Below, in pieces: positions 26,894 to 39,446 of a DNA stretch of 64,000 bases (the stretch's first letter is position 1; each line of letters starts with the position of its first letter). The DNA lies in assembly GCA_963735035.1 (NCBI GenBank), contig CAVTJJ010000004.1:1280001-1344000 (forward strand), given 5' to 3'. The stretch comes from an uncultured candidate division Zixibacteria bacterium (lineage in GTDB: Bacteria > Zixibacteria > MSB-5A5 > GN15 > FEB-12). Below the pieces are notes generated by a model. The model did not search any database, was not told where the DNA came from, and saw nothing but the letters and a program-made list of their open reading frames with translations. The translations under genes were made by a program, and so were the position numbers.

Positions 26894-28462
26894 TTGTCAA
26901 CCGATAAGATCAAGAAAAGCTCCAATGTGGCTTCGGTCGGTAAAGTCTCGGCCGCAACGGCCGTTTCCCGCGTTCTGGGGCTGGTTCGCGAGCAGGTCCA
27001 GGCCTATCTGTTTGGCGCCTCGATGGCTACCGATGCCTTTGTGGCCGCTTTCCGGATTCCCAACCTGCTGCGTGACCTGTTTGCCGAAGGGGCTCTTTCG
27101 GCCGCTTTTGTCCCGGTTTTCAAGGAACAGCTGGTCAACGACACGGAACAGAGCGCCTTCGATCTGGCCTGCACGGTCGCAACCGCCATAATGGTAGTCG
27201 TGGGCGGAGTGGTACTCCTCGGGATTGTAGCGACCCCGGTCCTTATCTTTGTCTCGGCCAACGGGTTTACCGACGAACCGGAGAAGTTTACTCTTACCGT
27301 CGAAATGACCCGGATCATGTGGGTCTTTCTCTTGCTGGTGTCGCTGTCCGCCCTGTTTATGGGCATGCTGAATTCGTTTGGAAGGTTCGGAATTCCCGCT
27401 CTTTCGCCGGCGTTATTTAATCTCGGCATTATTGGCTGCGCGGTTCTGATGTATCGCTGGCTGGACATACCGGTTTACGCGATGGCAATCGGGGTGGTCG
27501 TCGGGGGGCTGGGTCAGTTGCTGATCCTGGTGCCTCAATTACGACGAACCGGTTTTCGGTTTCGATGGCGATTCAATTTCCTGGATCAGAACTTCCGCAA
27601 AGTCATGCGATTGTTCTTACCCATGGTGGTCGGGCTGTCGGCCAGCCGGGTCAACATCCTGGTGAGTACTCTGCTTGCCTCGTATCTGGCCGAGGGATCG
27701 ATTTCTTATTTGAATTATTCGTTCCGCCTGATGCATTTTCCGCTGGGAGTATTCGGAGTGGCGCTCGGAACTGTCTACTTGCCAAATGCTTCCGAACTGG
27801 CAGCCCGGAGGGAAATGGATCGCCTTACCGCGGCCTTTCACGAGTCAATAAATCTAAACATGTTTCTTGTGGTGCCATCGGCCGCGTTTCTGGCAATCAT
27901 GGGCCACGAGTTGGTTGATGTCGTCTATCGCTGGGGCAGATTCTCCGAAGCTGATTCCGCCAATACGGCAATCGCCCTTTTTCACTATTCGTATGGCCTG
28001 ATAGGTTTTGCCGCGGTACGCGTAACGGTGCCAATCTACTATGCGCTAAAGGACTCATCGCTCCCGATGCGCTTTTCAGTAATCTCGGTAATCGTAAACA
28101 TCGCGCTATATTATCCGCTTATGAAGATGTTCAGCTTCGCCGGACTGGCGGCTGCGACTTCGATTGCAGGTCTGGTAAATTTCGGTTTGCTTCTGGGATT
28201 TCTTCCGCGCAAGGAAGTGAAGCCGGCTTATGGGCGGCTCTTGCTCGTCTTCCTTCGCGTCACGTTGGCCAGTGTGGTCGCGTTCTGGCTGGCGTCAATG
28301 TTGCCAATCCCGTCACCCGACAGCTGGTCCGAAAAGATTCAGCGTATCTGGGAATTTGGCATACGCACGTGCGTCGGAGCAGCGCTCTATTTGGGTCTCT
28401 GCGCGGTGCTCCGAGTCCAGGAGCTGCAATTGGTGCTCAACAAGGTAATTCGTCGCAAGTGA
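26894..28462 (+). CDS. murJ: Lipid II flippase MurJ (MviN)
   Basis: SRVLGLVRE, DAFVAAFRIPNLLRDLFAEGALSAAFVP, RLMHFPLGVFG; divergent from rpsT as in many bacteria. Confidence 0.96.
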   Translation: MSTDKIKKSSNVASVGKVSAATAVSRVLGLVREQVQAYLFGASMATDAFVAAFRIPNLLRDLFAEGALSAAFVPVFKEQLVNDTEQSAFDLACTVATAIMVVVGGVVLLGIVATPVLIFVSANGFTDEPEKFTLTVEMTRIMWVFLLLVSLSALFMGMLNSFGRFGIPALSPALFNLGIIGCAVLMYRWLDIPVYAMAIGVVVGGLGQLLILVPQLRRTGFRFRWRFNFLDQNFRKVMRLFLPMVVGLSASRVNILVSTLLASYLAEGSISYLNYSFRLMHFPLGVFGVALGTVYLPNASELAARREMDRLTAAFHESINLNMFLVVPSAAFLAIMGHELVDVVYRWGRFSEADSANTAIALFHYSYGLIGFAAVRVTVPIYYALKDSSLPMRFSVISVIVNIALYYPLMKMFSFAGLAAATSIAGLVNFGLLLGFLPRKEVKPAYGRLLLVFLRVTLASVVAFWLASMLPIPSPDSWSEKIQRIWEFGIRTCVGAALYLGLCAVLRVQELQLVLNKVIRRK

Positions 28463-28480: not shown

Positions 28481-30787
28481 GTGATGATCAAATCCCATCC
28501 AAGTTTGTTTCTGCTCTTCTTCGTCGTAGGTGGCATTCTTCTATCCGACTATCTGGACGTATCCCCGCTGGTTGGTTTTGCGTTCGCTTCACTCTCGGCC
28601 GGGCTGGCCGTAATAACGCTGACCCGTCAGCGGCGAGCTTCAGCCGCAATGCTTGCGGGGTTAGCACTTGGACTGATCGCCGCGGTCAACTTCGGCCTCC
28701 AGCTTCGCGGCCTTGGACCGAACCATCTCGGCAACATTGTTCGAGAACCGCTTCTCTATGAAGTGTGTGGTCGGGTGGCCGATTGGCCGGAGTTGAAGCC
28801 GGGGCGCACGGAGATCAAGATCGATATCGATTCGCTCCTGCCCGCGACAGCGCCGGGTCAGGTCAGCCGCAAGGTGGATGGTCGTCTGCTCCTAAAGATC
28901 ACCGACACGACGACCGCATTCCAGCGCGGCGACCGACTGGCTTTTCAGGCGCGGCTCTATCCTGTTAGATCCGAAGGGCGCGAGGATTTCGGCTACGCCC
29001 GCTACCTCAATTTGCAGGACATCCATGCCCAGGCGTTTCTACCGACGGGGCTCTACATCCAAATTGATCGACGCCCGTCGGTCGGGTTCTGGCCGCTGGT
29101 AGACGGGATACGCAACGCTGTGTGCGGGAGTCTTCAGAGCGATCTTAGTCCTACCGCGTCGGCGTTGGCGCGTGGCTTTTTGATCGGCGAGACTCGAGAT
29201 ATTCCAGCGGACGTCTATGGCCGCTTTCGCGACAGCGGCACGCTGCATCTCTTGGCCGTGTCCGGAGGTAATGTCGCCTTGGTTCTGCTGTTCTTCCTCG
29301 GGTTGATGCGCCCTCTATGGCTGGGTCGGGGTGCGCGTTCTCTGGTTCTGCTCGTAGTGATAGTCGTGTTTGCCGGTGTCTCCTACGGGGACCCCTCGGT
29401 GGTAAGAGCGTGCCTGATGGCAGCGCTGGTGGTCGGCGCTCGCCTTCTGGGACGGGTGTACGACCTCAATAACATCATTGCCGTCGCCGCGCTGATAATC
29501 CTGTTGGTACAGCCGACACAGCTATTCGATATCGGCTTTCAACTGTCGTTCGCCACCGCGTGGGGGCTGATATTCTTCGTCCCACGAATTGGCCAAGCCT
29601 TCGGCCGGCTTCAGGAAAGCCGCTGGTATCGCTGGCTGGGTATGCCAATCGTAGCTTCTTTGGTGGCGCAGATCGTTTCGACGCCGTTGATACTGCTCTA
29701 TTTCGAGCGCGTTCCGTTGATATCAGTCGCCGCCAATCTTGTCATCGTGCCGATGGTTTCGGTCGGTGTGATCGCAGTCATGCTTCTTCTCGTTGCGCAT
29801 CTGGTCTGGCCGCTTCTGGGTACGATGGTAGGGAGCCTGGTCGATCTGTGGCTGCGCGGGGTACTCTCCATGCTCGATTTCTTCGGCGGGGGAGAGGTCC
29901 CGGTTTGGAAGTCAGGCCTTCTATCGAAGTCCGACTGGGGTACGTTGATAATTGTCCTGGCGTATTTCGTCATGATCCTCTTCGCGGTGGCGTTCACTCG
30001 CCGCTGGGCCAGGAAGACTCTGCTAGTATCGGTGGCCTTAACGGTCAACGTTGCGTTGGCGGTCGGTGTAATCGCTCAGTTTCGACAACCGACCGGCGAA
30101 CTCCGTATTGAGCGGATACCGGGCGGCCTGGCAGTTCTTACCTGCGACCAGAAATCCTCGAATGTCGATCTGGTAATCACCGATATGTTGTCCCGCGACG
30201 ACGGTTCATCGGGAGTGACCATATTGAACGGACTGTTGAGCAGAAACGCGGTGACCCGTCTTCGCCGCCTGGTAGTCATGAGCGCCGACTACAATGCGCT
30301 CGCCGATATTCTCCGGGTCGCTCGAACCATGGAAGTAGAGTCGGTTCTGGTCGATCGAAGTCTGGAGCGCTCAGCGGGCGATTTGCAAGTCAGGAGCGAC
30401 TCGGCGGTGTATCACGGGCCGGTCTTGTTCTTCGGGGGAAGGCTCGGTCAATCGAACGGGAAGGGCTGCTATTTGGGCGACGAGGCCGTGCGCCTGAATC
30501 TCGGCAAGCTTCAGGTTGACATCTTGAACCACCCCGACAACGCAAGCCTTCCGCCCGAGTCTCTCAGTCTATCCGGCGTCTTGATTGTTGGTAGTCGCTG
30601 GAAGCCTGAGCCTCAGGAGTGGATCGAGCGTCGCAGGGCCGGCTATGATCAGATTATCTGTGCAGCTTTTGAGCAGCCTGAGCTGACGTCCGGGCCGGAC
30701 ACGGAACTCGATCCCGATGCCGCCCCGCCGGACTACGTAATCGATCTGTCACGATCCGGGGCTCTTAAGCTAAGTTTCGATCTATAA
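28481..30787 (+). CDS. comEC: DNA uptake channel ComEC/Rec2
   Basis: OB-like DUF4131 region, FRDSGTLHLLAVSGGN, PSVVRA, DIGFQLSFAT, ANLVIVP competence-domain motifs; degenerate C-terminal MBL domain. Confidence 0.9.
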   Translation: MMIKSHPSLFLLFFVVGGILLSDYLDVSPLVGFAFASLSAGLAVITLTRQRRASAAMLAGLALGLIAAVNFGLQLRGLGPNHLGNIVREPLLYEVCGRVADWPELKPGRTEIKIDIDSLLPATAPGQVSRKVDGRLLLKITDTTTAFQRGDRLAFQARLYPVRSEGREDFGYARYLNLQDIHAQAFLPTGLYIQIDRRPSVGFWPLVDGIRNAVCGSLQSDLSPTASALARGFLIGETRDIPADVYGRFRDSGTLHLLAVSGGNVALVLLFFLGLMRPLWLGRGARSLVLLVVIVVFAGVSYGDPSVVRACLMAALVVGARLLGRVYDLNNIIAVAALIILLVQPTQLFDIGFQLSFATAWGLIFFVPRIGQAFGRLQESRWYRWLGMPIVASLVAQIVSTPLILLYFERVPLISVAANLVIVPMVSVGVIAVMLLLVAHLVWPLLGTMVGSLVDLWLRGVLSMLDFFGGGEVPVWKSGLLSKSDWGTLIIVLAYFVMILFAVAFTRRWARKTLLVSVALTVNVALAVGVIAQFRQPTGELRIERIPGGLAVLTCDQKSSNVDLVITDMLSRDDGSSGVTILNGLLSRNAVTRLRRLVVMSADYNALADILRVARTMEVESVLVDRSLERSAGDLQVRSDSAVYHGPVLFFGGRLGQSNGKGCYLGDEAVRLNLGKLQVDILNHPDNASLPPESLSLSGVLIVGSRWKPEPQEWIERRRAGYDQIICAAFEQPELTSGPDTELDPDAAPPDYVIDLSRSGALKLSFDL

Positions 30788-30856: not shown

Positions 30857-30922
30857 ATACAGAGAATTGGTATGAAAACAGGATAGGTCTGCCGTTTGAC
30901 CTACGTCCAGAAAGATACCGCC

Positions 30923-32134
30923 ATGAGTCTGTCAGGAAATCTCAAGACCGTTGCCTTCTCAGATATTCTGCAGTTGCTGGCCACCGGGAAGAAATCCGGC
31001 ATGCTGGAATGCCATACCTCGACCCGTCAAAAAGAGGTAGCCTTCAAGGATGGCAACATTGTGTTCGCTTCATCGGTGAACGCCTCGGAAGACCTGCTGG
31101 GAAACATGCTCCTGAAGCGGGGGCGCATTTCCAAGACCGATCTGGAAAGAGCCATCGCTCTGCACAAGCAGACCGGCCGTCAGCTCGGCACCACTCTGAT
31201 CGACATGGGGCTGTTCGATAAGAACGAAATCGCCGAGTGTCTTAAGCTTCAGATCGAAGAGATCGTCTACAACCTGTTTTCCTGGCAGGAAGGCGATTTT
31301 GTCTTCCACGAAGGCGTTGCCCCCAGGAACGCGCCGTTCCTCGTGGAATTGGCTACTATGAGTGTCATCATGGAGGGGACGCGTCGTATAGACGAATGGC
31401 TGGAAATCCAGAAAGTACTTCCGCCCGATGACGTTCTGCTGCGCATTACCAAATCGCCCAAGTCCAACCGTGAAGAGCTCACGATGTCGCTCGATGAGTT
31501 CCGGTTATTGTCGCTTATCAATGGTGAGAGAACTCTGCCCGAGTTGATCAATCTCTCGCCGATGGGAGAATTTGTCACCTGCCGCGCCTTGTATCGTTTG
31601 ATCGTTCAGAATCTCGTGGAAGTGGCCGGCAAGTGCGAACGGGCCCAGGATGCCGAGCAGGAAGATGAAGAAGAGGCGGTGCTGAACATCGTCTTTCGCA
31701 TGTACTCAAATTGTTTTTATCAGATCCACGCCCGGGTGGAGCAGGTGCTCGGCAGCGACAACTCAAGGTACCCATCGTTCGCTTCGAAATTCCGCTCGGG
31801 TCTGACGAATTATTTCCCGGGGGTCGATCCGAAGTCGGACCTGATGCCGCCGTTCGAAAAGTTTCTCGCGTCGGTACGAACGCTGCCACCGCAGATTCGC
31901 TATCACACTCTGATGGCCTCGCTGGAACAGATGCTCTCGGAGCAGCTTCTGTTCGTATATCAGTTGCTTGGTGACGGCGTGTTTCACGACACCGCGTCCA
32001 AGGTGAAGATGGAAATATCGGGCCCCCTGGCGAGTCGCCGCGATCTGGTCAAGCGGTTCAATCTTGAGGATGATTTCTACGGCACGCTCAAACGGGCCGA
32101 CAAAATGGTTAAGCTTTTGAGAGGTTCTGTATGA
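30923..32134 (+). CDS. DUF4388 (PatA_N-like) domain protein with MshEN-like repeat and winged-helix segment
   Basis: MSLSGNLKTVAFSDILQLLATGKKSGML...LFSWQEGDFVF...MEGTRRIDEW; LLGNMLLKRGRIS...QLGTTLIDMG. Confidence 0.85.
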   Translation: MSLSGNLKTVAFSDILQLLATGKKSGMLECHTSTRQKEVAFKDGNIVFASSVNASEDLLGNMLLKRGRISKTDLERAIALHKQTGRQLGTTLIDMGLFDKNEIAECLKLQIEEIVYNLFSWQEGDFVFHEGVAPRNAPFLVELATMSVIMEGTRRIDEWLEIQKVLPPDDVLLRITKSPKSNREELTMSLDEFRLLSLINGERTLPELINLSPMGEFVTCRALYRLIVQNLVEVAGKCERAQDAEQEDEEEAVLNIVFRMYSNCFYQIHARVEQVLGSDNSRYPSFASKFRSGLTNYFPGVDPKSDLMPPFEKFLASVRTLPPQIRYHTLMASLEQMLSEQLLFVYQLLGDGVFHDTASKVKMEISGPLASRRDLVKRFNLEDDFYGTLKRADKMVKLLRGSV

Positions 32135-32493
32135 AAGCCACTATTGTAACTACCGCGCTACTTATTGCCGGGCTCGCCGATCGGGTCGATGCGGCCAACC
32201 TGGCGGTCATTGCCAGCCCGCCGGCGTTCCTGAATTTGATCGTGCTCGGCCTGGCGGTTGGGGCCATCGTAATCGGCTTGCCGATGCTTCGGACGATCAA
32301 AGGCGGATATCTGAGCCGTCCCTGGCAGTTGTTCCTCGCCGGTTTCGCATTGATGGCTCTGGCGCAACTTCTGGGACTCATCCGGACGTTGGAAATAGCG
32401 GACATCCCGATGTGGATATCTCCTGCTCTTACGGCTGTCTGTGTGGGGGCGTTTTTCTACGCCGTATTTGAGACGAAAAAGGTGCTGGGATAA
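32131..32493 (+). CDS. Small hypothetical membrane protein (signal-like N-terminus plus about 3 TM)
   Basis: ATGA overlap with the upstream gene; hydrophobic segments. Confidence 0.75.
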   Translation: MKATIVTTALLIAGLADRVDAANLAVIASPPAFLNLIVLGLAVGAIVIGLPMLRTIKGGYLSRPWQLFLAGFALMALAQLLGLIRTLEIADIPMWISPALTAVCVGAFFYAVFETKKVLG

Positions 32494-32504
32494 GCTGATT
32501 TGTG

Positions 32505-32533
32505 TTGACATAACCGCTTGGGAGATATATAAA
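32505..32533 (+). promoter_or_regulatory. sigma70-type promoter
   Basis: TTGACA-N17-TATAAA upstream of the TPR-roadblock gene. Confidence 0.55.
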
Positions 32534-32598
32534 TAACGTTACGTGAAATAGTCTCCCGGGTAACCGATTGCAAATGTTGTACTTGTGAGCAAATACCG

Positions 32599-33447
32599 AT
32601 GACGGTCAATGTCGAAATAGACAGCCGCATATTGAAGTGCCAGAAGATCTTGGAGATGGATCCCAACTCCCAGATCTTTGCGGCGCTGGCTGAGGCCTAT
32701 CGGAAGAAGGGCGAGCTTGAAAAAGCATTTCAGGTTTGCCACAGCGGACTCCGCATTCATCCGAATTACGGCGCCGCGCATCTGGTAATGGCCAAAGTCA
32801 ATCTCGATCGCGGTCTGTACGATTGGGCTGCGACCGAAGTGGAGAAAGCTCGTGAGGCCGGGGGCGACCTTCGCACAATCGAGTTGCTTTTGGCCGAGAT
32901 CAATATCTACAAGGGCGAATTTCAAGCGGCGATCAAATCCCTCAAGCGACTGTCAACCTCCGATCCGGGCAACATGCACGTGAAGCGGCTTTTGGAAATT
33001 GCGACCCGGATACCGGAAGAGCAACAGGAGCAGACCGGCGAGCCGGCGGAAACGAAATCTCCCGACCCGGCCGTGATTCCTCAAGCGGAATCACCGAACC
33101 GCATCATACCGGCGGATCTGTTGGCGGAAGCGCTTCGCATTCGCGGTGTCGAAGGCGCTCTGTTTATCAACGCCGAAGGTCTCGTGATCGAATCCCGGTG
33201 GGAAGCCGGTGTCGACCAGACCACTTGTGGCGCGGTGATGGCGGAAGTGAATACGTTCGTCGAACAGGAATTGATGAAGATATCTTTCGGACGGGTGACG
33301 ACGGTTCTAATTGAAACTTCCACCCTGGTGTTTTATATCATGATCGTTCCGGGTGGGATGTTTTTGATAGCAGGCGGAAGCGGGATCAATCTGGGTTCGT
33401 TGCGGATGAAAATGGCCACGCTGTTGGATAGGGTTCAGACCAGCTAG
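32599..33447 (+). CDS. TPR-repeat plus roadblock/LC7 domain protein
   Basis: DPNSQIFAALAEAYRKKGELEKA...HPNYGAAHLVMAKV TPRs; C-terminal GVEGALFINAEGLVIES...NLGSLRMKM roadblock. Confidence 0.85.
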   Translation: MTVNVEIDSRILKCQKILEMDPNSQIFAALAEAYRKKGELEKAFQVCHSGLRIHPNYGAAHLVMAKVNLDRGLYDWAATEVEKAREAGGDLRTIELLLAEINIYKGEFQAAIKSLKRLSTSDPGNMHVKRLLEIATRIPEEQQEQTGEPAETKSPDPAVIPQAESPNRIIPADLLAEALRIRGVEGALFINAEGLVIESRWEAGVDQTTCGAVMAEVNTFVEQELMKISFGRVTTVLIETSTLVFYIMIVPGGMFLIAGGSGINLGSLRMKMATLLDRVQTS

Positions 33448-33458
33448 GTAGGGCGCAT

Positions 33459-34463
33459 ATGGAACTGACCGGTCAAATCAATCGTCGGATCATTATCTTC
33501 TCACTGGCGGCGATCATTCTGCCACTCGTGGCGTTTCCCGCCCGGCTGGGGACTGATCTGGCCAGGGCGGCGTTCATCAACGCCCTGTACGAAGTGGTCT
33601 TTTACGGGGCCGTACTCTTTGTCTTTCACCGCCGCACCACGCTGCTAAAGCTGGTTCAGGGAGCGGGCGTTTGTCTCGTTTACCGCCTGGCTCAGGGAGC
33701 CGCCTTCGGTCTCTTGATTGCTGCGATTCATTCCATGCAATTGAAAGCCTCGTTGTCTCTGGGGATGTCCGCCTATCTGCCGGCGATCTTCTTCCAAATC
33801 ATCCTCGCGCCGTTTGCTTTGAAGCCGGCGCTCGATCAGTTGTATGAAGAAAGCACTCCCCGGCAGCGCGCTTTGAACGCGCCGGCCATGAATGACCGCG
33901 CCGACATGAGGCGGACGTCACTGGCCGTATCGAGAGACAGGTCACACCAATCTGACGAAGATTCCGTTCCTCGTGCGTTCCGACCCATGCCGCGTCCGGA
34001 CAGTGCGAACTCGTCGCGGTCCATGGAATCGTCGACCGGTCACCTTCGAATCGATCAAAATGGGTTTGATCGCGCCGTGAGATACATCGGCGAACACGCC
34101 TCGGTTCATCTGGCGGTCGTGCTCGACAACGAAGGCTTGGTGTTGGGCCATTACCGGCGGGGAAACATCGAGCCGGAAGAATGGGCGCCGCTGGCCCTGC
34201 TTCTGGTGGATGGCGGTGATCGTGTCCTGGCGCGCGGTCATCTGAACGGGCTCGAAAAGATGGATCTGGTTCTGAAAGATAAACGTCTGATCGTGGCTCG
34301 TCCCGATGGTTGTCATTTGATGGTGCTGTCCGAGAGACATGAGGATGAGCTCCTGAATATTCGTATCAATCAGTCGCTCGACATGATTAACAAGTTTGTC
34401 GCCGAGCGTTACGGCGCGAAGTTGAACCCGAACGCGGAGAGAGTACATGTACCAAGTGCTTAG
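33459..34463 (+). CDS. Membrane protein (about 4 TM) plus disordered linker plus roadblock/LC7 domain
   Basis: Hydrophobic N-terminal ~125 aa; SVHLAVVLDNEGLVLG...LLNIRINQ roadblock-like C-terminus. Confidence 0.75.
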   Translation: MELTGQINRRIIIFSLAAIILPLVAFPARLGTDLARAAFINALYEVVFYGAVLFVFHRRTTLLKLVQGAGVCLVYRLAQGAAFGLLIAAIHSMQLKASLSLGMSAYLPAIFFQIILAPFALKPALDQLYEESTPRQRALNAPAMNDRADMRRTSLAVSRDRSHQSDEDSVPRAFRPMPRPDSANSSRSMESSTGHLRIDQNGFDRAVRYIGEHASVHLAVVLDNEGLVLGHYRRGNIEPEEWAPLALLLVDGGDRVLARGHLNGLEKMDLVLKDKRLIVARPDGCHLMVLSERHEDELLNIRINQSLDMINKFVAERYGAKLNPNAERVHVPSA

Positions 34464-34790
34464 CAATCTTAACAAGACTCCCGGGGTCACCGGATCGATG
34501 GTAGTCGGTAACGACGGCATCGTGATTGCCGCCGACATGGCTTCCGGTTTCGAGGGAGAAACGGTCGGGGCCCTGGCCGCTTCGATCACTTCCAACATCC
34601 AGAAATCGCTGGATCGGCTGGAGGCTACTCCCTGGGCTCAGGTGACAATCGAAGCCGACAGCGCCAAGTTGTTCTTTACCGATGCCGGTCTCGGTATACT
34701 GGTGGTCACTACCGAGAAAGTGGTGAACATCGGTTTGATCCGTCTGGAGATAAGAATGCGATCGACAAAATAAAACTGCCGTCCTAAACG
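34447..34790 (+). CDS. Stand-alone roadblock/LC7 protein (MglB/MglC-like); C-terminus probably affected by an indel, so the true end is uncertain
   Basis: GVTGSMVVGNDGIVIA...VGALAAS...NIGLIRLEI; adding one A at ~34751 gives KNAIDKIK, the expected final helix. Confidence 0.8.
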
Positions 34791-34815
34791 GAGAGAGGAA
34801 TAGGACCGCTCAACT

Positions 34816-35895
34816 ATGGTATCAATCAACTACTCGGCCCGCGAGGTCTGCTGCAAGATCGTCTATTACGGTCCGGGACTGTCCGGCAAGACGACCAATC
34901 TGCAGTACGTCCATTCCCGGGTGCCGCAGAACACGCGAGGCAAGCTGATCTCGCTGGCGACCGAGGCCGACCGGACGCTGTACTTTGATTTCCTGCCGAT
35001 CAACATCGGCACGATCAACGACTTCCAGGCGAAGTTCCAGTTGTACACCGTCCCCGGCCAGGTCTACTACAACGCCACCCGCAAGCTGGTCTTGCGCGGC
35101 GTCGACGGTCTCGTCTTTGTGGCCGACAGTCAGCCCGACAAGATGGACGAGAACATCGAATCATTGGCCAACCTCGAAGATAACCTTCGGGAATACGGCT
35201 ACGACATGGCCCTGTTGCCGCTGGTGATACAGTACAACAAGCGCGATTTGCCCGGTGTCCTGAGTCTCGATGAACTCAACGCGCGGCTCAATCCGAGAGG
35301 GGTGCCGTTCTTCGAGGCGTCCGCTCCACAGGGCAAGGGCGTGTTCGATACTCTTAAGTTGATCATCAAACTCGTGCTCGACAAAGCCAAGGCGACCGGG
35401 GCTTCGGCGATGCCTCGTCGCACTGAAGCTGTCGCGGCGCCACCCGCCGCCGAGGCGCCGTATCCGTCGGTCGAACGAGTTCCGATCATGGCCCATGTCG
35501 AATCGGCTCCGGTGCAGATTCCGAAGCCGACACCACAACCGGTGGCCGCTTCGGCCAACTGGGAAGCGACCGCACAGGCGACTCCGACGGCCTGGGCCGG
35601 CGAGCATGAGGCTCATCCGCATGATCCGACCGCTTCCGAAGAGATGGGGGTTCGGCCGTATCCAGGCACGGATCGTGGCCACACCGGTGAGCTGCGTCGT
35701 ACCGGCCGTATAGGGCTGGGTGCGGTTACAAAGGAACTTCCCGCTGATTCGATAGGAAAGAATGTTAACTCCGAGGGTGCCGACCAGGTCCCGGGGATGT
35801 CATCGATGAACACACCGCAGATGGCTCCCTCTCTCAGGCGTCGCGGTCTGGCCAAGAAGCGCGGCTTCTTCAGACGCCTGTTCGGAATGAAATAG
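34816..35895 (+). CDS. mglA: MglA Ras-like GTPase with long C-terminal extension
   Basis: KIVYYGPGLSGKTTNL, DRTLYFDFLP (intrinsic Arg finger), TVPGQVYY, NKRD; ~165-aa Pro/Ala-rich tail ending KKRGFFRRLFGMK. Confidence 0.95.
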   Translation: MVSINYSAREVCCKIVYYGPGLSGKTTNLQYVHSRVPQNTRGKLISLATEADRTLYFDFLPINIGTINDFQAKFQLYTVPGQVYYNATRKLVLRGVDGLVFVADSQPDKMDENIESLANLEDNLREYGYDMALLPLVIQYNKRDLPGVLSLDELNARLNPRGVPFFEASAPQGKGVFDTLKLIIKLVLDKAKATGASAMPRRTEAVAAPPAAEAPYPSVERVPIMAHVESAPVQIPKPTPQPVAASANWEATAQATPTAWAGEHEAHPHDPTASEEMGVRPYPGTDRGHTGELRRTGRIGLGAVTKELPADSIGKNVNSEGADQVPGMSSMNTPQMAPSLRRRGLAKKRGFFRRLFGMK

Positions 35896-35913
35896 ATAGG
35901 TTTGGAGGACGTT

Positions 35914-36399
35914 ATGTCTGATGACGGTTTGATCATTTACGAAGAAGAAATCGCAACCATTGACACGCTTCTCAAGAAGATGTTGAAGGGGGCCGAGGCC
36001 AAGTGCGCGCTCCTCGTGGACAAGGATGGCCATCTGATTACGCGCCAGGGCTTCACCCATTCGCTCGACACCACGGCGCTTGCGGCGCTTCTGGCCGGGT
36101 CGTTCGCCTCGACGAAAGAGATCGCGCGTCTGGTCGGTGAGCCGGAATTCTCCGTGTTGTTTCACCAGGGCAAGAAAGACCACATCCACATGTCGATTGT
36201 GGGCGAACGGTCCATTCTGGTGGTGATCTTCGACGATCGCACCACGATCGGTATGGTGCGTCTGTATGCCAAGGAGACGTCGGAAGAATTGTCCCGGGTG
36301 TTTCGCACCCATACTGAGCGCAAACAGCCGAACGAGGCCCTGAGCGACGATTTCTCGGACAAGACGCAGGAAAGGCTCAACGACATTTTTCAGGACTGA
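35914..36399 (+). CDS. mglB: MglB roadblock GTPase-activating protein
   Basis: LIIYEEE...LVDKDGHLI...DTTALAALLAG...IFDDRTTIGMVRL and acidic C-terminal helix, closely paralleling Myxococcus MglB; GGAGG RBS. Confidence 0.93.
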   Translation: MSDDGLIIYEEEIATIDTLLKKMLKGAEAKCALLVDKDGHLITRQGFTHSLDTTALAALLAGSFASTKEIARLVGEPEFSVLFHQGKKDHIHMSIVGERSILVVIFDDRTTIGMVRLYAKETSEELSRVFRTHTERKQPNEALSDDFSDKTQERLNDIFQD

Positions 36400-36480
36400 G
36401 TGACGCTTGTGTCCGTCCATTGCGGGTGCGTGGCTTCACGTGCAAACCGGTTACCGCTTGAATAAATGTAAAGATCACCT

Positions 36481-38185
36481 ATGTCTGTCGAACTCAGCGC
36501 CATTCTCGTAAAGGCAGGGAAGATTTCTCAGGAACAGGCCAATGCGGCGCTGGAACGTTCCAAGATATCCAAAGAGCAATTCTCTAAAGTCCTGGTCGAT
36601 ATGGGGGCGGTCACCTCGGAAGAAGAGGTCACCAGTTTTGTCGGCAAGCATCTCAAGATCGGCGCCCTGAGGCTGAGCGACGTCGAACTTAATCCCGAAA
36701 TCGTCAAGCTGATTCCGCTTGATATCGCCCGTAAATTCAAAGTCATCGCGATCAGCAAGATCGGCAAGACTCTACTCGTGGCGATCAGCGATCCGAACAA
36801 TATCTACGTCCTCGACGCCATCAAGTTCATAACCGGCTGCAATGTCCAGCCGGCCATCGCGCCCGAAAAAGCAATCGAAAAGGCGATCGAGCAGTATTAC
36901 ACCGATGCTGGCGCTCTCTCGGAAATCGTCAAGGGGATGGAAGACGATCCCGATCTCGAAGTCGTATCCGTGGAGGACGGGCCGTCGGAAACCGACCTGA
37001 TGTCGCAGATCCAGGACAAACCGCTGGTCAAGCTGGTCGATTCGATCATCGGCGATGCCATCCGGATGGGTGCTTCCGATATTCACTTCGAGATGTACGA
37101 AAAGCGGATACGTGTTCGGTATCGTATCGACGGTGAACTTCGGGAGATGGCCCCGCTGCCGTTCAAGTATCGGGCGGCGATTGTCTCGCGTATCAAGATC
37201 ATGGCCGAACTCGACATCTCGGAACGCCGCCTGCCGCAGGACGGACGCATCAAGATCAAGATCACCGGCCGCACGGTCGATCTTCGCGTCTCGGTCCTGC
37301 CGACAATTTTCGGCGAAAAAGTCGTGATGCGAATTCTCGATCCGAAGGCGCTGAAGATCGACATGACCCAACTCGGTTTCCGCCAGGAAGATCTCGACAA
37401 ATTTGCGGACAAGATTCACTCGCCCGTACGGGATCATTCTCGTGACCGGGCCGACCGGTTCGGGTAAAACGACGACGCTGTATTCGGCGCTTCAGCAGTT
37501 GAACACGATCGACGTGAATATCATGACCGCCGAGGACCCGGTGGAGTTCAACTTCGAGGGCATCAACCAGGTGGCGGTGAAATCGGAAATCGGCCTGACC
37601 TTTGCCGCGGCGCTTCAGGTCTTTCTTGCGACAGGACCCGGATATCATCATGGTCGGTGAAATTCGTGACTCCGAAACGGCCGAGATTGCCATCAAGGCC
37701 GCCCTTACCGGACACCTCGTGTTTTCGACCCTGCACACCAACGACGCTCCGTCGTCGGTCACGCGTCTTATCGATATGGGCGTGCCGAACTATCTCGTGG
37801 CCTCGGCAACCCAGTTGATCATGGCTCAGCGTATGTGCAAGAAGATCTGCCAGAAGTGCAAGGAAGAGGTCAACCTGACCGTCCGGAGCAGGTCGAGACG
37901 CCTGAAGATGCCCCCGGACATGCTCAAAGGTATCCGGGCATTTCAAGGGAAAGGGATGCAGCGCGTGCAACGATACCGGAAAGTCGGGACGAACCGGTAT
38001 CTACGAAGTTATGCCTATCACCTCGGCCCTTGAGGAATTGATCCTACAGGAAAGCCTCTGACACCGAGATACGCAGACTCGCCATGGAGGAGGGGATGTT
38101 TTCACTTCGTATGGCGGCAGTCGATAAAATGAAGCAGGGCATGATCAGTATCGAAGAAGTTTTTGCGGTCACTGGGACCAACTAA
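36481..38185 (+). CDS. pilB: Type IV pilus extension ATPase PilB (read across several single-base indels)
   Basis: [61 protein letters not shown] and CxxC pairs spread over consecutive frames; indels near 37423, 37617, 37880-37945 and 38050. Confidence 0.92.
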
Positions 38186-38224
38186 GTCCGGCCACTTCTT
38201 GGTTTTCCGGCAGAATCCGCTGCC

Positions 38225-38291
38225 CATCAATCACTTATCATTGACAAGTAGGCTCTTTTCCGGTCAAGATTCGGCGATTTCTAGCCGATAT
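38225..38291 (+). promoter_or_regulatory. sigma28-like promoter of pilT-pilC with IHF-like site
   Basis: TCAAG-N15-GCCGATAT (38264-38291); CATCAATCACTTA (38225-38237) is close to the IHF consensus. Confidence 0.6.
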
Positions 38292-38350
38292 ACTGACAGT
38301 GGACCTTTATAGGTGTGAAGACTGTCCTTTTTCGGAATAGGAGATTGTCA

Positions 38351-39446
38351 ATGGTTTCGTTGCGCGAGCTTGCTGGATCAAATGGTTACGTATGGGGGCA
38401 TCCGACTTGCACTTGACCGTCGGGTCGCCGCCGGTCGTGCGTGTCGATGGCAAGCTTCAGAGAATGACCAGTACGACGTGCTCACCGGTGAAGAAACCAA
38501 GAAGCTCGCTTACTCCATGTTGAACGAGAAGCAGAAGCTCAAATTCGAACAGAATTGGGAACTGGATTTCTCGTTCGGTATCGAACAGTATGAGCCGTTT
38601 TCGCTGCAACATCTTCATGCAGCGCGGTAACGTGGCGGTCGTGCTGCGGCAGATTCCGTATAAGATGCAAGACCTTCGATCGAACTCGGCCTGCCCAAAG
38701 TGATCGCCGAATTCTCCAAGCTGCCGCGCGGTCTGGTGCTGGTAACCGGTCCGACCGGCTCGGGCAAGTCCACCACCCTGGCGGCGATTATCGACAAGAT
38801 CAACAAAGAGCGCCCGGTTCATATCATTACGGTGGAAGACCCGATTGAGTATTTGCACCGCCATCAGTTGGCGTTGATCAATCAGCGTGAAGTGTACTCC
38901 GACACCCCGTCGTTTGCGTCGGCGCTGAAGTACGCTCTCCGCGAGGATCCGGACGTAGTGCTGGTCGGTGAAATGCGCGATCTGGAAACGATCGAAGCGG
39001 CCCTTTCGATTTCGGAGACGGGTCACCTGGCGTTCGCCACGCTGCATACCAACTCCTGCGCCGAGACGATCAACCGTATCGTCGACGTATTCCCGACCAA
39101 CCAGCAGGAGCAGATTCGGGTGACGCTGTCGTTCACGCTACAGGCGGTGGTCTCACAGGTGTTGATCCCCAAGATCGGGGGCGGGCGAGTTCTGGCCATG
39201 GAGATCATGGTCGCCACGCCGGCGATGCGGGCGATCATTCGCGACGACAAGATCCACCAGTTGTACTCGATGATTCAGTCCGGACAGAAATACGGCATGA
39301 AGACGATGAACCAGTCGTTGTCGGAACTATACCAGGGTGGCAAGATTTCGCTGAACGATGCCATGGGCACAGTCACAACCCGCAGGAACTGGGCGAGATG
39401 CTTTCGCGTCAGAAAGCGCCGGCCTACACTTGATGCGGCGACGTGA
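38351..39446 (+). CDS. pilT: Type IV pilus retraction ATPase PilT (read across several indels; exact stop uncertain)
   Basis: Corrected N-terminus MVSLRELLDQMVTYGASDLHLTVGSPP..RVDG; GPTGSGKSTT, EDPIE, ALREDPD, GEMRD, TGHL..TLHT, AMRAIIRD (AIRNLIRE-like); AGGAG RBS. Confidence 0.92.

Follow-up and report, generated by a model that had tools for sequence, protein, structure and literature searches.

A conserved MinD-like C-terminus on a long-tailed MglA GTPase of Zixibacteria, a probable membrane tether

Introduction

MglA is the reference model for Ras-like control of front–rear polarity in bacteria, where it is a soluble protein that partner proteins recruit to the cell pole. Here we describe an MglA of a different build, encoded in a stretch of 64,000 nucleotides (the window) from an uncultured Zixibacteria bacterium (assembly GCA_963735035.1, contig CAVTJJ010000004.1, positions 1,280,001 to 1,344,000 of the forward strand). 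Its gene, mglA, is a single open reading frame (ORF) on the plus strand of the window (34816..35895) that begins with ATG, encodes 359 amino acids (aa) and closes with a TAG stop codon (35893..35895). A canonical G-domain is followed by a long linker and by a terminal peptide that resembles the membrane-targeting sequence of MinD. The original prediction, made from the letters of this DNA, proposed that such a protein would be a self-tethered bacterial Ras-like GTPase. The locus, the conservation of the tail and its distribution among relatives are presented below, and the tether reading is weighed against its alternatives.

Results

The first 192 residues (34816..35391, plus strand) form the G-domain. 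In a search of the PDB, residues 3–197 aligned without gaps to residues 3–197 of Myxococcus xanthus MglA (5ymx_A, E 3.7e-78) and, also without gaps, to Thermus thermophilus MglA (3t12_A, E 1.8e-69). The identification as MglA rests on these PDB matches, because the protein passed no NCBIfam model and its Pfam matches, to Arf/Ras, were weak. The domain carries the P-loop GPGLSGKT, R53 and T54 of switch I, TVPGQ of switch II and the NKRD motif, and across 125 diverse sequences G19, G24, K25, T26, R53, T54, T78–Q82, N141, K142 and D144 are invariant. The G3 element reads Thr-x-Pro-Gly-Gln (T78, V79, P80, G81, Q82), not DxxGQ, with the same residues as M. xanthus MglA in the alignment; R53, the candidate arginine finger, and T54 likewise align with their M. 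xanthus counterparts. Roles for the intrinsic Arg53 and for TVPGQ in MglA are described in the available parts of two papers (PMC4316618, PMC10933270). AlphaFold2, run with the 125-sequence alignment, returned a predicted local distance difference test score (pLDDT) of about 90–98 over most of the domain. By sequence, the gene encodes a Ras-like polarity GTPase with all catalytic motifs, and it is the sole MglA detected in the genome. By every test applied the protein is an MglA, except for the small, soluble, single-domain build: its 359 aa exceed the ~195-aa form without extension. The solved M. xanthus and T. thermophilus chains have 195–203 residues and no extension, in agreement with the ~195 aa originally quoted for them.

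A tail of about 165 aa, starting at 35392 after ...VLDKAK, had been predicted. The G-domain does end in ...KLVLDKAK at residue 192 (codon 35389-35391), and the tail that begins at 35392 comprises 167 aa (residues 193–359). Most of it is a variable linker rich in Ala, Pro, Ser, Thr and Glu (residues 193–333, 35392..35814), predicted to be disordered from its composition and from AlphaFold2. Its 141 residues include 24 Ala, 18 Pro, 12 Thr, 12 Gly and 12 Glu, with no Cys and no Phe, which agrees with the Pro/Ala-rich linker first noted. In 118 full-length homologues the linker contains 17% Ala, 16% Pro, 12% Ser, 9% Glu and 7% Thr and has a median net charge of −5, and the tail is 130–194 aa long (median 163). 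The last 20 residues carry a net charge of +9 here and of +6 to +11 (median +9) across these homologues. Conservation along the protein is uneven. The mean top-residue fraction per 10-residue block is 0.64–1.00 in the G-domain and 0.21–0.57, with frequent gaps, over residues 201–330, and reaches 0.70, 0.75 and 0.95 in the final three blocks, the last of which covers the final 9 residues.

Three motifs stand out in the tail, the first two of which are absent from the original prediction. The island R-P-Y-P-G (residues 280–284, 35653..35667) lies inside the linker; R280, P281, P283 and G284 are invariant in 64 sequences, and the pattern R[PA][YFW]PG occurs in 120/120 listed homologues, 66–88 aa from the C-terminus. 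It is probably a short partner-binding motif. The first half of the C-terminal module (residues 334–346, 35815..35853) consists of P-x-M-A-P-S-L-R-R-R (334–343) and a spacer. Here P334, M336, A337, P338 and R343 are at least 90% conserved, the pattern is found in 119 of the 120 listed homologues, and the related forms PTMQESLR and PKMAPSKR appear in more distant tailed MglA representatives. The module closes with the terminal peptide K-K-R-G-F-F-R-R-L-F-G-M-K (residues 347–359, 35854..35892), which combines a polybasic stretch with a MinD-type amphipathic sequence. This is the terminus that the original prediction placed there, KKRGFFRRLFGMK, and the TAG follows it directly.

Structure prediction for the tail was repeated with 125 diverse sequences because the model built with 64 close homologues was poor (mean pLDDT 57, and under 50 in the first half of the G-domain). 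Both runs left residues 198–350 without secondary structure. The earlier model has a low-confidence helix at 351–355; the later one (mean pLDDT 76.9) is coil to the C-terminus, with a tail pLDDT of 47–74. Residues 193–359 contain no Cys, and therefore nothing like a CAAX lipid anchor or prenylation is expected. None of the five overlapping ORFs tested, of which four are minus-strand and one lies in another plus-strand frame, has a Pfam match, and Rfam found no family at gathering score within 33000-38000. Overlapping ORFs or RNA were rejected as features of the tail region on these grounds.

The tail is shared by close relatives, and the design reaches well past this genome, which the original prediction did not note. 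A search of 5.8 billion proteins gave at least 8000 scored candidates, the best 120 of which were used as the homologue set. These are 317–386 aa long and, where named, come from Zixibacteria metagenome-assembled genomes (MAGs); 118 of the 120 start with MVSINY and the other two are cut at the N-terminus. The C-terminal module closes all 120, with GFFKRLFG exact in 102 and changed conservatively in the other 18 (e.g. F to L/I/W, L to V/M). Orthologues that stop near residue 195 would have spoken against the original prediction; the listed homologues all run far past that point. Further, the gene is a single long ORF in the same operon in 24/24 relatives' loci, and a match was obtained in 38/41 related genomes, with the main matches in open frames of 321–422 aa. 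The three genomes without a match are 77%, 96% and 68% complete. In a search for shorter proteins, the first ten listed matches (at least 73% identity) end inside the G-domain or in frame-shifted junk, with the exception of P0272. This protein of 195 aa, 83% identical to the G-domain, ends exactly in ...LDKAKSTS on a 4-kb contig; either its gene call is truncated or it represents a rare MglA without a tail in Zixibacteria. Genuine short MglA of 190–196 aa begin at 63–69% identity, the named ones belonging to Gemmatimonadota, Longimicrobium and Eisenbacteria.

The last 27 codons were compared among 20 genomes (190 pairs). Within the 11-codon stretch K-12 to G-2, 1137 of the pairwise differences are synonymous and 95 non-synonymous, and at the Arg, Gly, Leu and Phe positions three or four of the codons, or both of them, are in use with the residue constant. 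Because synonymous differences far outnumber non-synonymous ones in these terminal codons, what is selected is the amino-acid sequence and no element of DNA or RNA, and the selection on the terminal peptide is purifying. These data also bear on the reading of the tail as an indel read-through artefact of long-read assembly or as a fused neighbouring gene. Indels do occur nearby, with at least four frame changes in pilB and at least two in pilT of the same window. However, the mglA ORF is colinear throughout with the 118 full-length homologues, which come from independent assemblies, and with the 24 genomes, and the linkers differ in length yet always regain the identical in-frame terminus, on which purifying selection is seen. 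Homologue lengths, the shared module, the single ORFs in 24 loci and the codon comparison refute an artefact or fusion, the probability of which we regard as negligible.

The likeness of the terminal peptide to MinD was examined with a motif scan in which each prokaryotic species was represented by one genome; it gave at least 119 loci whose DNA encodes G-F-[FL]-K-R-L-F-G. Among the 119 listed, 56 are the ends of MinD proteins, where no more than 2 residues separate the motif from the stop. In another 20, which are other proteins, up to 12 residues lie between motif and stop, and the motif often follows a long linker that is acidic or rich in Pro and Ala. The remaining 43, internal or in short ORFs, are probably mostly due to chance. 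Enterobacterales MinD ends in ...EEEKKGFLKRLFGG, with the core GFLKRLFG, and many Burkholderiales MinD end in ...EKPGFFKRLFGGK, whose octapeptide is identical to the Zixibacterial consensus GFFKRLFG. In Zixibacteria MglA, GFF[KR]RLFG likewise stands 2 residues before the stop, so the MinD-like terminus claimed at the outset is confirmed at the level of the core. The E. coli MinD peptide KGFLKRLFGG serves as a portable membrane tag, according to the available part of PMC5471200. Elsewhere in the source genome no protein besides MglA has the motif at its C-terminus, and no MinD is found above the family cut-off (best 68 bits vs 212.9); the peptide is thus not one held in common with a resident MinD.

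GF[FL]KRLFG with basic residues also closes a series of unrelated proteins in the scan (L028, L067, L069, L096 and L122, a group from Bacteroidota, as well as L072, L053, L087, L056, L073, L108 and L139). By eye, the motif-ended proteins include penicillin-binding-protein-like proteins (Bacteroidota), a DEAD-box-helicase-like protein with a Gly/Arg-rich tail in a Bdellovibrionaceae MAG (L072), proteins of ~200 aa of no assigned family, and others in which the linker is very long and either acidic or rich in Pro and Ala. The terminal peptide has the look of a 'linker plus anchor' cassette in wide reuse.

Across the phylum, the last 37 residues used as query found a match in 79/151 sampled genomes. 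The matches are concentrated in three families of one order (53/54, 8/10 and 15/15), with almost none elsewhere. On sequence grounds this scarcity is divergence and not absence, because five genomes of five other families (f2, f5, f6, f7, f8) each carry one long MglA of 330–411 aa with a polybasic-aromatic end of its own: KKPGFFRRLFGRK, RKSFFARLFSLFAKEKK, KKKKKKFFLFRWFSRDND, KKKKRFFLFRWLFGKR and RKNRSLFSRLFGWLFGR, all different. The terminus thus appears to be conserved in its physicochemistry and not literally, with charge and aromaticity kept and the letters changing from family to family.

More distant relatives were sought, without a profile, among 1.84 billion representatives at 50% identity; this search gave 6811 matches at E ≤0.001, the best 150 of which were used. 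All 150 are 255–717 aa long, a list biased to long proteins because the tail of the query adds score. A crude classifier labelled 37 of them 'polybasic-aromatic end' and 18 'C-terminal transmembrane (TM) helix', against a background of 29 and 154, respectively, among 2435 stop-to-stop ORFs of at least 250 aa in the source genome. In a FastTree phylogeny of the G-domain only, 18/18 TM forms and 34/37 peptide forms fall into one 95-row group (local support 95), and the tail label changes 17 times, compared with a shuffled mean of 49.7. Among the 43 unclassified rows of this group, a relaxed rule marks 10 more as anchor-like. When 27 short MglA (every fourth found) were added, they formed one group (support 99) on the other side of the branch from the tailed forms. 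An IQ-TREE phylogeny of 63 rows shows the same split (Shimodaira–Hasegawa-like approximate likelihood ratio test, SH-aLRT, 95); its rows were picked by tail class, so that grouping is not independent of the tail feature.

Other kinds of end were seen among long-tailed MglA-like proteins, unclassified rows of the 95-row group included. P0174, P0193, P0211, P0185, P0142, P0190 and P0187 have a conserved acidic-aromatic end (DSPF[IL]DLxPF.GVD or D-F-D/N-P-Y/F), and the end of P0162, P0166, P0209, P0260 and P0267 resembles a small beta-rich domain. ESM Atlas cluster labels for tailed relatives, which serve as leads only, name Fibrobacterota, Acidobacteriota and Planctomycetota; Planctomycetota is also the NCBI name for one TM-anchored form. 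Tentatively, and with rather less than even confidence, we read the tailed MglA as one large old subfamily with a hypervariable linker and interchangeable ends (MinD-like peptide, true TM helix, acidic-aromatic docking motif or small beta-rich domain), present in phyla (by automatic labels, Zixibacteria, Fibrobacterota, Acidobacteriota and Planctomycetota) with an independently evolved, membrane-bound two-dimensional switch.

The neighbourhood of mglA is conserved as well. The gene order is DUF4388 protein, 120-aa unknown, TPR-Roadblock, 4-TM Roadblock-like, 108-aa Roadblock, tailed MglA, MglB and PilB. From the TM protein through PilB it is kept in 24/24 relatives' loci. The DUF4388 and 120-aa genes are present in 18/20 upstream loci, the other 2 of which reach the contig end, and the TPR-Roadblock gene in 20/20, 2 of them partial at the contig end. 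In the window, the cluster genes given here with coordinates lie on the plus strand, beginning with a 412-aa DUF4388-domain protein (30896..32134, Pfam 4.1e-31). A 282-aa TPR and Roadblock fusion follows (32599..33447, Pfam TPR families and Robl_LC7 3.7e-06). Next comes a 334-aa protein (33459..34463) with four TM-like N-terminal segments by hydropathy (windows 10-28, 38-56, 72-90 and 99-125) and a C-terminal half that is weakly Roadblock-like (Robl_LC7 E 0.041, 14.1 bits, below cut-off), which may be a membrane-integral MglB-like regulator. Directly upstream of mglA lies a 108-aa single Roadblock/LC7 protein (34447..34773, Pfam Robl_LC7 3.3e-14), 62–94% identical and syntenic in 24/24 relatives' loci.

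Directly downstream, mglB (35902..36399) encodes a 165-aa Roadblock-type GTPase-activating protein (GAP; PDB match to M. xanthus MglB, 6izw_B, E 1.4e-36, Pfam Robl_LC7 6.5e-15) that scores 90.4 bits with the NCBIfam MglB model, below its 200-bit cut-off, and is syntenic with mglA in 24/24 loci. The seven-gene block 30896-36399 thus sets three clear Roadblock-type genes and one weak one (the TM protein) around one GTPase. The type IV pilus extension ATPase gene pilB follows (36481..38185; Pfam T2SSE and MshEN, and tblastn with the intact 570-aa orthologue of genome G002) in at least five frame pieces, with frame changes near 37412-37425, 37614-37639, 37942-38030 and 38048-38055. Downstream of pilB are pilT, whose frame changes at least twice, pilC and a gene for a PilS-like kinase. 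The frameshifted stretch of pilB and pilT covers 37412-39430; mglA, mglB and pilC around it are intact, and in G002 (same genus) and G014 the pilB and pilT orthologues are single ORFs (570/584 and 380/358 aa, respectively). Either the assembly is locally poor or both pilus ATPases have recently decayed. Upstream of the cluster, MurJ (26894-28462) and a ComEC-type competence protein (28481-30787) are ordinary envelope and competence genes.

Discussion

The reading that we favour, with good though not full confidence, is that this MglA is tethered to the membrane by its C-terminal module, and it probably works there beside the pilus motors. In the proposed mechanism, the G-domain is joined through a disordered, fast-evolving linker of ~140 residues to a conserved 26-residue module made of P-x-M-A-P-S-L-R-R-R, a short spacer and K-K-R-G-F-F-K/R-R-L-F-G-x-K. 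The terminal peptide, presumably unstructured in solution, would most likely behave like the MinD membrane-targeting sequence. Once in contact with the cytoplasmic membrane, at its anionic inner leaflet, the peptide would fold into a short amphipathic helix lying in the membrane plane and would insert F351, F352, L355 and F356; electrostatic attraction would come from the nine net positive charges among the last 20 residues. By homology, MglA would alternate between GTP and GDP under the control of MglB, like its counterparts in the model organisms. It would be confined to the membrane surface, with the linker as a leash for the G-domain. By general polymer figures such a leash may measure ~50 nm fully extended and of the order of 10 nm as a random coil, and could bring MglB, the operon's remaining Roadblock proteins (including a putatively membrane-integral one) and the type IV pilus ATPases within range of the G-domain. 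Partner binding and a modulation of the anchoring are possible roles for the RPYPG and PxMAPSLRRR islands. Two further observations are in favour of a tether. The anchor seems to have been swapped functionally in relatives (18 TM-helix versus 37 peptide ends in the best 150 representatives). In addition, the operon holds an integral-membrane Roadblock-like protein besides mglB and pilB/T/C, and such a partner, with its Roadblock match of only E 0.041, fits a switch acting at the membrane.

Several points weigh against a tether. A single MinD-type peptide is weak alone; MinD needs dimerisation, and MglA is a monomer, so the binding strength of MglA would rest on the polybasic flank. The helical hydrophobic moment, proposed as a check with the original prediction, favours the 6–8-residue core but not the longer peptide. 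The core FFRRLF has a moment of 0.924 and ranks 1 of 354 six-residue windows, which speaks for a tether, and even this value is equalled by 517/5000 shuffles (~10%). The 13-mer reaches 0.318 (rank 80/347 windows), a value attained by 46% of shuffles, and over windows of 11–18 residues the C-terminus is not singled out. With statistics this weak, it is not the moment that carries the case but the identity to a proven anchor, together with the comparative pattern. Similarly, the terminal helix that AlphaFold2 predicted with one alignment is coil with the deeper one. The invariant RPYPG and PxMAPSLRRR are not accounted for by lipid binding alone. Further, the organism is known from a metagenome-type assembly alone. 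With frameshifts in both pilB and pilT, either the effector genes at this locus may not work or the assembly is poor in this part.

Two alternatives keep the tail genuine and give it another function. The terminal peptide, RPYPG, PxMAPSLRRR or any of these together might be docking motifs for a protein partner and not bind lipid; the candidates are the operon's TPR-Roadblock protein, some other Roadblock protein and a pilus ATPase. Three separate conserved islands in a variable tail do resemble short linear motifs, the TPR-Roadblock gene is always in the operon, and TPR domains commonly bind C-terminal peptides. Some tailed MglA-like forms end in the acidic-aromatic DSPF[IL]DLxPF or DFDPY, which is impossible as a membrane anchor, so MglA tails can bear protein-binding ends. 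However, the octapeptide here is identical to a proven lipid-binding sequence carried by unrelated proteins, its letters vary across families where charge and aromaticity stay, and a TM helix substitutes for it in sister clades. Partner-binding motifs usually co-vary with their partner and do not converge on the MinD sequence. We therefore judge docking as the whole explanation to be improbable.

We are similarly sceptical of a conditional anchor, in which the tail would be masked by the nucleotide state or by a partner, and MglA would cycle on and off the membrane like MinD or Arf. Masking might be the task of the conserved islands that lie upstream of the anchor, and the pLDDT of 70–74 at residues 201–240, a region without secondary structure, might reflect packing on the G-domain. 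The archaeal ArcoA binds the membrane by means of an amphipathic helix while oscillating, as far as the accessible part of the preprint describes it (10.64898/2026.07.23.738820). Yet no contact between tail and G-domain is seen in the data, a long linker varying from 130 to 194 aa fits a passive leash better, and sister clades with TM helices cannot cycle.

With the M. xanthus and T. thermophilus MglA (5ymx, 6h17, 6hjh, 3t12) the Zixibacterial protein shares the G-domain, P-loop, Arg53, TVPGQ and NKRD, a paired gene for the Roadblock GAP MglB and adjoining type IV pilus genes. Those proteins lack an extension, whereas here 167 residues, three conserved motifs and a MinD-type terminus are added. 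The gene order here is mglA then mglB, presumably the reverse of that in Myxococcus. Bacterial MglA is called cytosolic in the available part of the 2026 ArcoA preprint (10.64898/2026.07.23.738820). With the MinD membrane-targeting sequence the tail has in common an identical octapeptide core placed 1–2 residues before the stop and basic residues before it. The carriers differ, a ParA/MinD ATPase in one case and a Ras-like GTPase in the other. In MinD the peptide directly follows the fold, whereas a disordered linker of ~140 aa intervenes here, and the polybasic flank of Zixibacteria MglA is much stronger (net +9 in 20 aa).

The original prediction also saw a functional mimic of the hypervariable tail and lipid anchor of eukaryotic Ras/Rab. 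The architecture supports one half of this, in that eukaryotic Ras/Rho/Rab proteins also join a G-domain through a flexible variable linker to a basic membrane-binding end, and clades related to the present MglA swap the kind of anchor. The lipid half does not hold, as the tail of this MglA has no Cys and no CAAX, CC or CXC and thus no prenylation. In addition, its linker is several times longer, and the design arose independently, inside the MglA family. A closer eukaryotic parallel is a C-terminus that is polybasic and hydrophobic but not lipidated.

Among archaea, Rab-like GTPases are described without a C-terminal extension or polybasic signal in the available parts of PMC4915359 and PMC10933270. 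ArcoA of Haloferax volcanii and the Asgard Arf-like proteins are likewise prokaryotic Ras-superfamily GTPases that reach the membrane by an amphipathic helix (10.64898/2026.07.23.738820 and PMC11914678, as far as the accessible texts describe them). Their helix, however, is N-terminal and adjacent to the fold, and they are archaeal and of other subfamilies; ArcoA acts in division-site placement and not beside pilus genes. A 2014 survey of prokaryotic Ras-superfamily GTPases, covering genomes to April 2012, mentions no MglA extension or amphipathic element in its available part (PMC4316618). A tailed or anchored MglA was not found in the literature searched, a scope that lay outside subscription journals and preprint supplements. 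The novelty lies in the combination of a genuine MglA with what is probably a membrane anchor of known type.

If the tether is real, conserved self-anchoring would change the physics of this switch: the protein would spread by two-dimensional diffusion, be highly concentrated locally, at the membrane, and act on a leash whose reach is defined. This tail peptide, strongly polybasic in its flank, may find a use as a compact membrane tag as well. The eukaryotic small-GTPase solution of a variable linker plus a membrane anchor would then have arisen in bacteria too, and, if the subfamily reading also holds, the MglA/MglB switch in these phyla would be a membrane-bound reaction-diffusion system and not a soluble pool.

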